20,997 nt of DNA from Halodesulfurarchaeum sp. (GTDB lineage Archaea; Halobacteriota; Halobacteria; Halobacteriales; Halobacteriaceae), in NCBI GenBank assembly GCA_042216015.1, contig JBDGUI010000019.1, forward strand, positions 1 to 20,997, written 5' to 3'. The notes under the pieces were generated by a model, which was not told the origin of the DNA, did not search any database, and was given only the letters and a program-made list of their open reading frames with translations. The position numbers and the translations under genes are program-made. Positions 13,262-16,116 of the stretch are shown here, in pieces; position 1 is the stretch's first letter, and every line of letters begins with the position of its first letter.

Positions 13262-13666
13262 TCCGAACCGGAGCGACCTGGCCAGCGTGTCGCTCGAATG
13301 CGCGGCGTTCGGCCCACGACGATGAGTTGGTTCGGTCCCGGCACGGTGTTCGCAATCTCGATGAGAGATCGCAGGAGCGGAGGCCCATTCGGCGATCCGG
13401 TACCAGGAAAATCACCAGGGACGCGCTGGTGGGCGAGGACAGACGCCATCAGCAGGAAGAATGCGTCCGAACGCCGCAACGGGGGCCCCGAGGCCTTGGC
13501 TTCCCCGGGGGAGTCATTTGCCCGGAGATCGGCGATCGATGGCACACCAACTCTTTCCACCGTTTCAATTGAAGGGTCGTCCCTGCAGGAGTCTCTCGGT
13601 GGTCGGCCTGGCGAACCGAAAACAGTTTGCAGCGCCCTGCGGGAGTATTTCATACCAGCTTTTGAC

Positions 13667-14752
13667 ATGGGCAACCCTGCGATTTACGAGTTGACGAAGT
13701 CCCTGGTCGACGTGCCCGAATCCGATTCCGAACGGGCGGCCGGCTCGCTGATCGTCGATTGGCTCCGCAGTGAGACGAGCGCGGAGGTCACACGGGACGA
13801 TGGTGGCAACGTCGTGGCCCGAAAAGGATCGGGCGGCCCCTCCCTGGCACTGGTCGGTCATCACGACGTCGTCGACCCCGCCCAGTCACAGATCGCGGAC
13901 GGTCGGCACCGCGTGAGCGAGGAGAACGGGCGACTGCAAGGCCGTGGGACGGCTGACATGAAGGGGGCGCTTGCCGCGATGATGGTGGCTTTCCAGCGTG
14001 CCGACCCGGATTCGGTACTGATCTTCGCCAGTTTCGTCGGCGAGGAGCGGGGCGGAATCGGCGCGCAGTCGGCGATCGAAGACGGGCTCAAACCCGACTT
14101 CGCGATCGTCGGCGAGGGCTCGGCGTCCTATTCACGGGAGGGCGTTCTCGACGTCGCGATCGCCCACAAGGGCCGCCGGGGTAGTTCGATCGAGGCCACG
14201 GGGACGTCCGCCCATGCGAGCGAACCGGCAGCCGGCGACAACGCGATTTACCGGGCCCTGGAGGCCGTCGATCGGATCCGAGATCTCGATCCGCCGACTC
14301 GAACGGTCTTCGGCGAACGGCTCGCCGGAAGCCTGGCCGTGACCGAAATCGACGGCGGAACCGACTGGAACGTCATCCCCGAGTCCTGTTCGGTGACCGT
14401 CGACGAGCGGACGGTTCCGGGAAAGCGTGCCGATCTGGGGATCGTGGAATCGATCCCGGGGGTCGAATGGACGGTCGACCAGGATCTTCCGCCCATGCGG
14501 TGTGAGAGCCGGGAATTCGCCGATCAGGTTCGGGCGGCGGCCGCAAAGGCGCAGTCCGGAACCCCCGAATTCGTCCAGAAGCCGCATGCGACGGATGCCG
14601 GATGGCTCGCGAAGGCGGGGACCGAGTGTGTCGTGTGTGGCCCGGCGGAACCCGGTGAGGCCCATTCCGCGACCGAGAGCGTCTCGAAATCGCTTCTGTA
14701 CACTGCGTTCGATTGCTATCGGTCGGTCGCCGATGACTGGGGTCCGCTGTGA
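13667..14752 (+). CDS. M20 family metallopeptidase/deacylase (ArgE/DapE-like)
   Basis: Motifs GHHDVV, GRGTADMKG, GEE, GEGS, AHAS, NVIP, TDAG and EAHS. Start set at ATG 13667. Confidence 0.9.
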   Translation: MGNPAIYELTKSLVDVPESDSERAAGSLIVDWLRSETSAEVTRDDGGNVVARKGSGGPSLALVGHHDVVDPAQSQIADGRHRVSEENGRLQGRGTADMKGALAAMMVAFQRADPDSVLIFASFVGEERGGIGAQSAIEDGLKPDFAIVGEGSASYSREGVLDVAIAHKGRRGSSIEATGTSAHASEPAAGDNAIYRALEAVDRIRDLDPPTRTVFGERLAGSLAVTEIDGGTDWNVIPESCSVTVDERTVPGKRADLGIVESIPGVEWTVDQDLPPMRCESREFADQVRAAAAKAQSGTPEFVQKPHATDAGWLAKAGTECVVCGPAEPGEAHSATESVSKSLLYTAFDCYRSVADDWGPL

Positions 14753-14851
14753 GTTTGAAACGTTTCCATTTGGATTCCAATCGTTGTTGTGCCCCGTGAA
14801 TGGAGGGGACGAACGCACGCATTGTGATTTTGTCTTCTGGAAGAAGGGGTA

Positions 14852-14985
14852 TGGGCCCGGAGGGATATTGAACCACGGTCAGTCCGCTCGCTCCGCTCGC
14901 TTCCTTCCCTGCTTCAAATCCCACCGACCCGCATTTCACACCTCGCCGCGGAGATGAAACTCCGCGGCCTCAGTCGGTCAGAAAG
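14852..14985 (-). repeat. tRNA-Trp trailer element: inverted and direct copies of the tRNA 3' end, plus a hairpin
   Basis: Direct copy at 14852-14874, inverted copy at 14911-14933, a 9-bp perfect hairpin at 14945-14968, and GCGAGCGGAGCGAGCGG in the spacer. Confidence 0.85.
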
Positions 14986-15158
14986 TGGGGCCGGAGGGAT
15001 TTGAACCCCCGATCGACTGATATCCCCGGTATGCCTCGGCACTCCAGAGGGTCGTCATCGCGCCCGAGAGCCAGTCGAACGCTCGGTATACCAGTCTGGA
15101 GTGTCGTCGTCGGCGAACCTCTGGAGTCAGTCGCCATTCCTGGCTTGGCCACAGCCCC
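14986..15158 (-). tRNA. trnW: tRNA-Trp (CCA) with a 99-nt intron at 37/38 (exons 15121-15158 and 14986-15021)
   Basis: GGGGCTGTGGCCAAGCCAGGAATGGCGACTGACTCCAG | intron | ATCAGTCGATCGGGGGTTCAAATCCCTCCGGCCCCA. Anticodon CCA at 15122-15124. A bulge-helix-bulge is present (CUCC/GGGG helix with AGA and AUA bulges). The CCA end is not encoded. Confidence 0.97.
15022..15120 (-). ncRNA. Intron-encoded box C/D guide RNA (targets C34 and U39 of pre-tRNA-Trp)
   Basis: Box C ACGACGA 15104-15110, D' CCGA 15083-15086, C' ATGACGA 15052-15058 and D CCGA 15036-15039. The D guide CCTCTGGAGT pairs with ACUCCAGAGG, with the +5 base opposite C34. Same layout as the known haloarchaeal tRNA-Trp intron sRNA. Confidence 0.9.
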
Positions 15159-15252
15159 GTACCCCCGATTGTCGGGTACGGCTAAAGGGCGTTACGGTTC
15201 ATTAGTCACCGGCGAACGCCCCCACACTGGCCCCGCCGCGTCTGAGAGTACC

Positions 15253-16116
15253 TCAGACCCAGGGCGCACGGTCGTCCTCGCTCTCCCCCGGGTAGCCATA
15301 CTGGTCCTTGCTGGGCTCGTCCTCGGCCGTGGGGCCGTTTCCTCCGCCGTTGGTGACCGCCGTCGATTGTCCTGCCGTCGTCCGATCGGCCTGTTCTGTT
15401 GGGTCGATGGCGAGCAACGCGGCCATCGCGAAGACCGGGAGCGGCGCCGACTCGGGGACGATGTCGATCAACGAGAGTGCGAGCGTGCCCAGGGCGACCG
15501 CGCTGCCAAAGCGGAAGCGATCGATGTCCACCATCCCCTCGATACGGGGGCGAAGGAGAACCAGCAGGAGGGCGAATGTGACCCCCACCCCGCCGGCGGC
15601 CATGCCTCGGGCCACGAGTTCGGTGTTCGTCGTGAGCGCGAAGGCGAAGGAACTCGGGTTCAGACTCGCGATCACCCCGAGGCCGATGATGACACTCGCA
15701 CTGGGGAGGTACTCCCCGATGGTCGAACTGGCGGTCTTCGCGGCAACGGCCACGATCACGAGGGCCGCGAACCGCTCGAAGATGATGATGTCGATGAAAC
15801 TGGCGATCGTCGGTGCCAGAGCGGATTCGATCCCCGCGATCGCGATCAGCGGGAGCCCGATCATGAGGACTTCCTTCGTTTGTCGGACCGGGTCGGCGTC
15901 CATCTCGACGAGCACCACGGCGACCGTGGCGCTCCCGCCGAAGACGAGCAGGCCGACCTGCAGGATGCCCACCGGACTCGAGAGCGCATCGGCGAGGACG
16001 AGCGCCGGGAAGATCCCGTCGATGAGCGGAAGGAGCATGACCGTCGCCAGCAGCCTGGTCGCGCCGCCGACCTGCTGCTCGAGGCGAAGCGCAATCGGGT
16101 GTCGGGAGCTGCTCAT
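15253..16116 (-). CDS. DUF5794-type haloarchaeal multi-pass membrane protein
   Basis: 287 aa with many TM segments; N-terminal HPIALRLEQQVGGATRLLATVM.LPLIDGIFPALVLA and C-terminal RAPW. Lies divergent from guaB. Confidence 0.82.
   Translation of the reverse strand: MSSSRHPIALRLEQQVGGATRLLATVMLLPLIDGIFPALVLADALSSPVGILQVGLLVFGGSATVAVVLVEMDADPVRQTKEVLMIGLPLIAIAGIESALAPTIASFIDIIIFERFAALVIVAVAAKTASSTIGEYLPSASVIIGLGVIASLNPSSFAFALTTNTELVARGMAAGGVGVTFALLLVLLRPRIEGMVDIDRFRFGSAVALGTLALSLIDIVPESAPLPVFAMAALLAIDPTEQADRTTAGQSTAVTNGGGNGPTAEDEPSKDQYGYPGESEDDRAPWV

Follow-up and report, generated by a model that had tools for sequence, protein, structure and literature searches.

A tRNA-Trp trailer in a haloarchaeon is one unit of a family of hairpin repeats linked to tRNA genes

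How does a transfer RNA gene come to be followed first by an inverted and then by a direct copy of its own 3' end? The question is raised by the tRNA-Trp gene of a Halodesulfurarchaeum sp. genome (assembly GCA_042216015.1; haloarchaeal in type, 1.68 Mb in 51 contigs, 64% G+C and 86.6% complete), which lies on the minus strand of contig JBDGUI010000019.1 (C29), a contig whose whole 20,997 bp form the window analyzed here. Leaving the tRNA in the direction of transcription, one meets a spacer with a hairpin, an antisense copy of the tRNA end (A'), a core rich in G and A and, finally, a sense copy of the same end (A). An earlier description of this trailer, made from the letters alone and called the sequence-only reading below, proved accurate in every detail that we checked: all of its pieces are present where it had put them (Table 1), and a repeat search recovered the 134-bp offset that it had given for the direct copy (14852-14880 against 14986-15014, start to start). 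What the trailer represents becomes apparent from other tRNA genes. It is a single member of a family of hairpin repeats that accompany haloarchaeal tRNA genes, a family spread across the haloarchaeal order and apparently undescribed, which would make it a large and dynamic haloarchaeal branch of the tRNA-linked-repeat phenomenon.

The family comes into view with a piece of about 72 nt (14851-14922) that, when 41 related genomes are searched, matches many places at 76-90% identity, three of them on other contigs of its own genome. Each matched place lies just 3' of a tRNA and has a shared centre, with flanks that are an antisense and a sense copy of that tRNA's 3' end; in other words, the arms are specific to the neighboring tRNA, and the same cores stand behind different tRNAs. 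The sequence-only reading had proposed aligning the end of every tRNA to the sequence downstream of it, and we did so with the last 24 nt of each tRNA and its own downstream 300 nt, on both strands, in the window's own genome (G000) and in two complete genomes of the same genus, G002 and G011, all of whose tRNA loci were used. With sense copies counted at scores of at least 18 in the own genome and at least 17 in the other two, the layout recurs at 9 of the 39 tRNA calls of the incomplete own genome (where 8 of the 39 calls have less than 90 nt downstream and a few of the ARAGORN calls are doubtful), at 22 of the 43 tRNAs of G002 and at 19 of the 45 of G011, and the upstream control never rises above 13. 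A tenth case in the own genome, at tRNA-Pro, is interrupted by a contig end. The three genomes together hold 86 sense copies and 67 strict units, up to three in tandem behind a single tRNA, and most units other than that of tRNA-Trp score 22-24 of 24 against their own tRNA end. The unit begins directly after the tRNA and on the same strand at tRNA-Trp and at nine other tRNAs of the own genome, and the 67 strict units were detected downstream on the tRNA strand.

Could the resemblance be an accident of a conserved T-loop? The sequence GGTTCAAATCC is present in many tRNAs, and short matches are therefore to be expected. When the last 24 nt of tRNA-Trp were aligned locally with the 300 nt on either side, however, the downstream sequence scored 18 (sense) and 14 (antisense) and the upstream control 8 and 6; not one of 2000 shuffles equalled the sense or the antisense score, and among 1989 random 300-nt windows of the genome the sense score was reached by none and the antisense score by one. 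The similarity also continues beyond the T-loop through the tRNA-specific acceptor strand, and the identical layout stands at dozens of tRNAs with arms that match each. A chance origin from the T-loop sequence is refuted by the shuffles and by the downstream and upstream surveys of the three genomes, and we give it next to no credence.

The units share a common anatomy: a spacer or a hairpin called H1, then A', a GA-rich stem-loop core, and A, with A', core and A forming one long hairpin (H2 at the tRNA-Trp locus). The spacer comes in a short class of about 25-32 nt, with a consensus near TTCTGCGACGAACGAAGGTGAGGAGC, and a long class of 61-75 nt that contains H1, whose stems vary between copies while pairing persists, and that ends in GCGGTCGTRAAT. 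In the A' arm, the T-loop and the 3' strand of the T-stem stand in reverse complement, joined by a variable and often degenerate acceptor portion. A is more regular: in 45 of 66 units it begins 2 nt ahead of the T-loop, and in 44 of the 66 it ends between -1 and +2 nt from the tRNA end. The cores fall into a handful of types, all of those listed lying in one orientation relative to the tRNA, and many carry an apex of the form GA-NN-GNA-N'N'-GA with a covarying 2-bp mini-stem (AC/GT, GC/GC or CC/GG); the own genome has 10 strict apex hairpins as against 0 in a reversed-sequence control, and 6 of these 10 follow a tRNA, on its strand, at a distance of no more than 140 nt. Tandem units need not have like cores. 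In the own genome, tRNA-Met (C12:5808-6082) and tRNA-Ser(TGA) (C22:1000-1306) are each followed by two tandem units with unlike cores, the second Ser unit being degenerate.

How cores are shared, and how the arms differ, is seen most directly in single comparisons. Over 54 nt, spanning the core and the neighboring T-loop portions of the two arms, the tRNA-Trp unit shares 94.4% identity with the second tRNA-Met unit on C12; the tRNA-specific arm ends of the two units differ. One core type, AGGGAGGAGCTTTGCTCCGACCGT, stands behind Arg-CCG, Arg-TCT, Leu-TAG, Lys-TTT and Trp in G002 and behind Leu-TAG in G011; an exact 28-mer of it occurs in 10 named genomes, belonging to Natrinema (2), Natrialba (3), Haloterrigena, Halosimplex, Natronomonas, Halostagnicola and Salinadaptatus, and 9 of the 10 loci directly follow a tRNA, to which their arms correspond by eye. 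In an alignment of 53 units, the A' column that faces the variable T-loop position covaries with it (UA 30, CG 16), both sides having altered in 17 of the 53, and a second paired column, for the TTCAATT variant, does likewise (6 sequences); RNAalifold, applied to the same mixed set, recovered only the stem of the T-loop sequence with its inverted copy, since cores of different types do not align. Beyond the T-loop, A' finds its best match in its own tRNA in 20 of 67 units and ranks that tRNA among the top three in 33 of 67, with about 40 distinct tRNA ends to choose from. We also considered that A' might be a memory of an earlier host tRNA, and this is not supported as a rule, the own tRNA coming top in those 20 of 67 units, far above chance. 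The A' of the tRNA-Trp unit itself is, by reading, about equally close to the tRNA-Arg(TCT) end and to the Trp end.

How far does the family extend? We searched for a signature, GGATTYGARYC-N18-48-GGTTCRAATCC, with the same pattern read backwards as a control. The signature is present in 70 of 121 sampled genomes of the order, in 55 of the 76 of high quality and in 15 of 18 families; the backwards pattern was found in 0 of the 121. A narrower pattern has at least 120 loci in the public genome collection, and of the 120 examined, 87 lie no more than 300 nt downstream of a tRNA on the right strand, the 3' arm nearly always matching. Among the matches listed (80 records), most are haloarchaeal, from Haloferax, Halorubrum, Haloarcula, Halobacterium and Natrinema, for example, and a few records come from Nanoarchaeota, Woesearchaeota, Nanosyncoccus, Acidimicrobiia, Verrucomicrobia and Bifidobacterium; at the bacterial loci the copy contains the encoded CCA.

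The units also differ between close relatives. The sequence-only reading had suggested looking for presence and absence between relatives, and such differences are seen when the orthologous tRNA loci of the sister species G002 and G011 are aligned pair by pair. Clean filled and empty sites, bounded by direct repeats of 22-30 nt, occur at Trp, Val-gac, Gly-tcc and Glu-ctc: at tRNA-Trp, a unit is present in G002 and missing from G011 before the same downstream flank, and a 30-nt direct repeat (the tRNA end plus 8 nt) bounds the insert; at Val-gac, G002 has an additional, tRNA-proximal unit; and Gly-tcc and Glu-ctc are filled in G011 only. Arg-tcg likewise has a unit in G011 only, with flanks too diverged to show the boundaries. 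Over 42 orthologous tRNA pairs, strict units are found in both species at 13, in G002 only at 8, in G011 only at 5 and in neither at 16, and a similar core is present at the G011 ortholog for only 12 of 32 G002 units. Across the genus, the tRNA-Trp locus is empty in some genomes and has differing cores after one and the same H1 in others; in one case the unit has an internal deletion, and what is left of its A shows the tRNA variant of that same genome. Small hairpins resembling H1 appear and disappear beside tRNAs independently when G002 and G011 are compared. Independent small hairpins with the form CGAG-stem-GAACGNAGTGA-stem-CTCG followed by AAGGCGAG adjoin tRNA-Gly genes of the two genomes (L029, L049, L066 and L086); each is present in one species only, and they are separate from the tRNA-end units.

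What, then, could the units be for, if they are for anything? They might be functional RNAs cut from the tRNA transcript, serving either as a switch of pre-tRNA processing or termination, with A' pairing to the tRNA end or else to A, or as a mimic of the tRNA top half, set free as a small RNA by tRNA-processing enzymes; this we hold to be unlikely, for all that it explains. The two mutually exclusive folds on which the sequence-only reading had built such a switch do exist on paper and are nearly isoenergetic: the minimum free energy (MFE) structure of the spliced tRNA plus trailer pairs A' with the end of tRNA-Trp itself (-97.8 kcal/mol), and the cloverleaf into which the spliced tRNA folds (-33.8 kcal/mol) plus a folded trailer (-62.7) add up to about -96.5 kcal/mol, the expected pairs of A' numbering 15.45 with the tRNA end against 3.15 with the distal copy. 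The switch itself went unsupported, given units that number 0 to 3 per tRNA, are often degenerate—many A' arms decay past the T-stem—and come and go, with sister species differing in their presence and carrying unlike cores at orthologous sites. Folding in general gives the idea more room, for units fold much better than their dinucleotide shuffles (mean z -5.54), and the sense strand folds better than its complement, with a lower energy in 55 of 66 units and a lower z-score in 58 of 66, a strand bias that the shuffles do not have (for H2 of the tRNA-Trp unit, the MFE is -38.1 kcal/mol in the sense and -25.0 in the antisense strand). A sense-RNA wobble bias was not found: the A'/A stems hold 57 G:T and 69 A:C appositions (p = 0.33), and the folds, with 1783 pairs on each strand, have 76 G:U pairs in the sense and 84 in the antisense. 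Because G:U is equally common on both strands, the strand bias comes from the GA-rich internal and hairpin loops of the sense strand, and these would stabilize RNA and also the single-stranded DNA of that strand; mini-hairpins of the GCGAAGC type are unusually stable in DNA. The stems of H1 and of the cores do covary between types (by eye), the listed cores do keep one orientation, and a T-rich stretch usually follows each unit, as it follows the tRNA. [quoted passage not shown] At our locus, the public runs gave one contig, of 378 nt, depth 3.6 and 9 differences, over 14857-15004 in a salt-lake metatranscriptome (run X20); it is too weak to show transcription; it comes from a related sequence, whose unit and trailer it joins to a tRNA 3' end, and, with DNA carry-over possible, it hints only weakly that a relative co-transcribes them. 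Stretches left uncovered carry no information. Otherwise the locus is met in public reads in DNA metagenome (Logan) contigs broken at the tRNA, and the contig joints listed there have short sides or low likeness and probably belong to other organisms.

The units might instead be scars or miniature derivatives of integrase elements that insert in the tRNA T-loop, their A copies being left and right attachment (att) sites and their movement provided in trans, as with cis-mobilizable elements. Their direct repeats cover the tRNA from T-loop to end and sometimes up to 8 nt more, a typical att span; a T-loop sublocation class of tRNA att sites was reportedly set out by Williams in 2002. Haloarchaeal prophages have duplicated 22 and 43 nt of tRNA, to go by the accessible part of PMC3119063. 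In the IMG/VR collection, one haloarchaeal-looking unit (L224) sits at the end of a predicted provirus contig, and many bacterial palindromes made of an inverted and a direct tRNA end lie at the ends of viral contigs. Against all this, only about 85-135 nt separate the repeats, the same cores stand behind many different tRNAs, about half of all tRNAs are occupied by up to three unlike units each, and duplication of an att site leaves the antisense copy unexplained. The sequence-only reading had stated that no integrase is encoded here, and a Pfam scan of the 22 open reading frames (ORFs) of the window agrees, revealing no integrase, recombinase or transposase family. A distant-mode BLAST search with the 146-nt trailer, a query whose shortness limits sensitivity, returned nothing at E<=0.01 from 50,697 phage and 72,556 plasmid records. 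An origin as att scars or as miniature derivatives of such elements strikes us as improbable. Nor is an IS200/IS605-type mobilizer required: the Y1 transposase (Y1_Tnp, PF01797; IS200/IS605, RAYT) has one or two copies each in G002, G011 and G025 and none in G057 (99% complete, with 23 matches to the signature pattern) or in the own genome, both of which bear units, and it was rejected as the mobilizer on that ground.

The account that we favor, if with some reserve, is that the units are non-autonomous DNA repeats that turn over by recombination or template switching in the T-loop sequence and between A repeats. Units would be gained and lost, and their cores swapped, inside the universal GGTTCRAATCC of the T-loop and between direct A repeats, either through host replication and repair or through integrases of the T-loop class acting in trans. 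Since the exchanges would take place within these sequences, A would be a duplicated target segment running from the T-loop to the 3' end, and A' would be what closes the unit into a hairpin. The units would be passively transcribed, probably as tRNA trailers that are then trimmed off, and a cellular function would not be needed to explain them. The proposal that the tRNA-Trp trailer marks a minimal non-autonomous tRNA-targeting element survives in spirit, as a family at tRNA ends with shared cores, tandems and filled and empty sites, and with neither integrase nor transposase among the 22 ORFs.

Several things weigh against such an account, and they should be set out together. The enzyme or mechanism of spread was not identified, Y1 being absent from G057 and G000 with nothing to replace it. 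The re-templating of A' at each tRNA is unexplained by simple recombination or by any model that we examined. The stronger folding of the sense strand, the covarying hairpins and the constant orientation of the cores would also fit a selected RNA. Any of the differences between filled and empty sites could be a deletion between direct repeats, and loss by recombination there could account for many. Finally, the units are not independent, many being orthologs or members of one family, and statistics taken across units overstate the case.

Has anything like this been seen before? [quoted passage not shown] We compared the rttR/RtT units of the tyrT-tyrV operon and rrA, rrB and rrF behind 5S rRNA. 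Like the haloarchaeal units, they stand directly 3' of a stable-RNA gene, on its strand and in tandem, and end in a copy of the gene's own 3' end (18-19 bp in E. coli, 22-24 nt in haloarchaea). The tyrV trailer of K-12 even shares the order A', core, A: its three 178-bp units each combine a short antisense copy (GGGGAAGGAT) with a GC-rich core, where the motifs GAGCG, CGAAGGG and GCGAAGCG occur, and with a 19-nt sense copy. The differences are equally plain. In E. coli, the copy has its start within the T-loop and takes in the encoded CCA, whereas the haloarchaeal copy starts at the GG before the T-loop and stops at the discriminator; tandem units are near-identical in E. coli and have different cores in haloarchaea; the haloarchaeal antisense arm is much longer, which makes the whole unit one long hairpin; and the haloarchaeal units occur in archaea, with about half of the tRNAs occupied.

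Is the family, then, one already catalogued, which the sequence-only reading had named as an outcome that would deflate it? In layout, it is akin to repeats catalogued since 1978 (PMC8144298, accessible text), but in sequence, it is not among them: no unit matched the Rfam RtT model (RF00391, cut-off 45 bits), whose best score in the own genome was 17.6 bits, elsewhere, with nothing at E<=1 in 14000-16000. Among the curated RNA families of Rfam 15, only tRNA passes its gathering threshold in 14000-16000. As a side observation on the RtT model, at E<=10 it weakly matches Haloferax volcanii, Synechococcus elongatus and Deinococcus radiodurans besides E. coli, and its cut-off is passed in one of these control genomes. 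To judge from sequence, the haloarchaeal units are laid out and probably work like TLRs, outside the RtT sequence family.

Other systems resemble the units in part. The att duplications of tyrosine integrases share the direct repeat from the T-loop region to the tRNA 3' end, but they come with an integrase and a kilobase insert (the units are about 100 nt), with no antisense copy and with no cores common to different tRNAs. The REP/BIME, PATE, MITE and SMR repeats are likewise short, gene-less, hairpin-forming, intergenic, strain-variable and divided into several sequence families; the units, unlike PATE and MITE, are tied to tRNA 3' ends and have arms copied from the neighboring gene rather than fixed terminal repeats, and no autonomous partner was found for them, Y1_Tnp being the transposase family tested. 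The available portion of a comparison of Haloquadratum genomes (PMC3119063) mentions PATE, MITE and SMR classes and prophage-associated partial tRNAs and, within that portion, no tRNA-linked units. More broadly, full-text literature searches turned up no description of such units in archaea, subscription journals and older genome papers lying outside that coverage. A last likeness is to origin-dependent inverted-repeat amplification (ODIRA), in which fold-back template switching at short inverted repeats yields inverted triplications. The order direct, inverted, direct (A, A', A) and the hairpin-capable junctions (H1 and core) are the same, at a scale of about 20 nt instead of kilobases. A simple origin of the ODIRA kind was rejected, as it predicts junctions of local sequence, and H1 and the cores are families shared between loci.

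One could go further and suppose that a single cross-domain class of hairpin cassettes takes in the haloarchaeal units, the TLRs of E. coli and similar-looking repeats in DPANN archaea, Patescibacteria, Acidimicrobiia and Bifidobacterium; such cassettes, bounded by inverted T-loop sequences, would recombine or switch template at the universal T-loop and would rebuild both arms from the tRNA behind which they come to lie. We find this conceivable but doubtful. If true, it would mean a kind of mobile element specific to tRNA genes, one that retargets itself and is without an enzyme of its own (or depends on enzymes of tRNA). Among the IMG/VR contigs (L225-L301) and in Bifidobacterium (L129/L131), there are also near-perfect palindromes of 51-58 nt, composed of an inverted and a direct bacterial tRNA 3' half (...GGTTCAAATCCATGCCCCGCTACCA), many of them at the ends of predicted provirus contigs.

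Why should any of this matter? The layout known from the E. coli TLRs occupies about half of the tRNA genes in some haloarchaea, with many core types and visible turnover, and because it occurs in the cultivable and genetically tractable Haloferax, Natrinema, Haloarcula and Halobacterium, an old question about TLRs becomes testable: how units arise, whether and how they are transcribed and processed, and what part they have in tRNA expression or genome stability. There are practical consequences as well. A unit may be taken in error for the att site of a provirus since lost, breaks between the contigs of metagenome assemblies fall where units lie, and ARAGORN miscalls units as tRNAs. The program labels two units "tRNA-Ser(cga)", at L026:693-786 (G002) and L077:390-483 (G011), so that units can be mis-annotated as tRNA genes or pseudogenes. 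Seven contigs of the own genome (C4, C8, C11, C13, C14, C21 and C44) have a tRNA gene at one of their ends or no more than about 200 nt from it; tRNA genes, and perhaps the repeats that trail them, appear to fragment the assembly.

Table 1. The tRNA-Trp gene and the parts of its trailer (positions in the 20,997-bp window)
Feature	Position	Strand	Basis
tRNA-Trp(CCA) with intron	14986-15158	minus	Rfam RF00005; ARAGORN intron mode
tRNA-Trp intron	about 15022-15120	minus	ARAGORN split
Trailer start, CTTTCTGACCGACTGAG, pyrimidine-rich, partly mirrored beyond the hairpin	14969-14985	minus	Read from sequence; inverted repeat reaches into trailer start
Perfect 9-bp hairpin with 6-nt loop (H1 position)	14945-14968	minus	Sequence and fold
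A', imperfect antisense copy of the tRNA-Trp T-loop and of the 3' strands of its T-stem and acceptor	14911-14933	minus	Repeats; alignment score 14
Core, 36-nt purine-/GA-rich stem-loop (AGGGAAGGAAGCGAGCGGAGCGAGCGGACTGACCGT), common to units behind other tRNAs	14875-14910	minus	Sequence comparison
A, sense copy of the tRNA-Trp 3' end, GG + T-loop to discriminator, with 1 substitution and 1 insertion	14852-14874	minus	Repeats; alignment score 18
H2, long hairpin from A' + core + A	14852-14933	minus	RNA fold

A few details of the tRNA-Trp locus remain. The gene ends, read on the minus strand, in ...GGTTCAAATCCCTCCGGCCCCA, and the complementarity of the trailer to it does not stop there: the repeat search returned inverted arms of 30 nt, 77% complementary, at 14913-14942 and 14976-15005, and thus passing the tRNA end by about 10 nt into the trailer. 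Between the 9-bp hairpin and A' sits GAGGTGTGAAAT. That hairpin occurs once in the genome, and by eye the homologous tRNA-Trp unit of G003, a genome of the same genus, lacks it; it appears to be an extra insert within a spacer of the short class.

The unit lies in a convergent intergenic region between the tRNA and an M20 peptidase gene (13298-14752, plus strand), and the other genes of the window are housekeeping ones: an aminotransferase, a triosephosphate isomerase, a DinB-type polymerase, two MoeA, an IMP dehydrogenase and sensor kinases. The tRNA gene itself is easily missed, for ARAGORN without its intron mode finds no tRNA at this locus. With intron mode (-i), it calls tRNA-Trp(cca), i(39,99), with a 99-nt intron, and the Rfam tRNA model, RF00005, matches across a 103-nt insertion at 44.6 bits (E 9.5e-08). 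The intron is weakly like a box C/D guide RNA (RF02163, sR-tMet; 22.2 bits, E 0.55, under the gathering score), a match that fits haloarchaeal tRNA-Trp introns, which are known to carry a C/D RNA.

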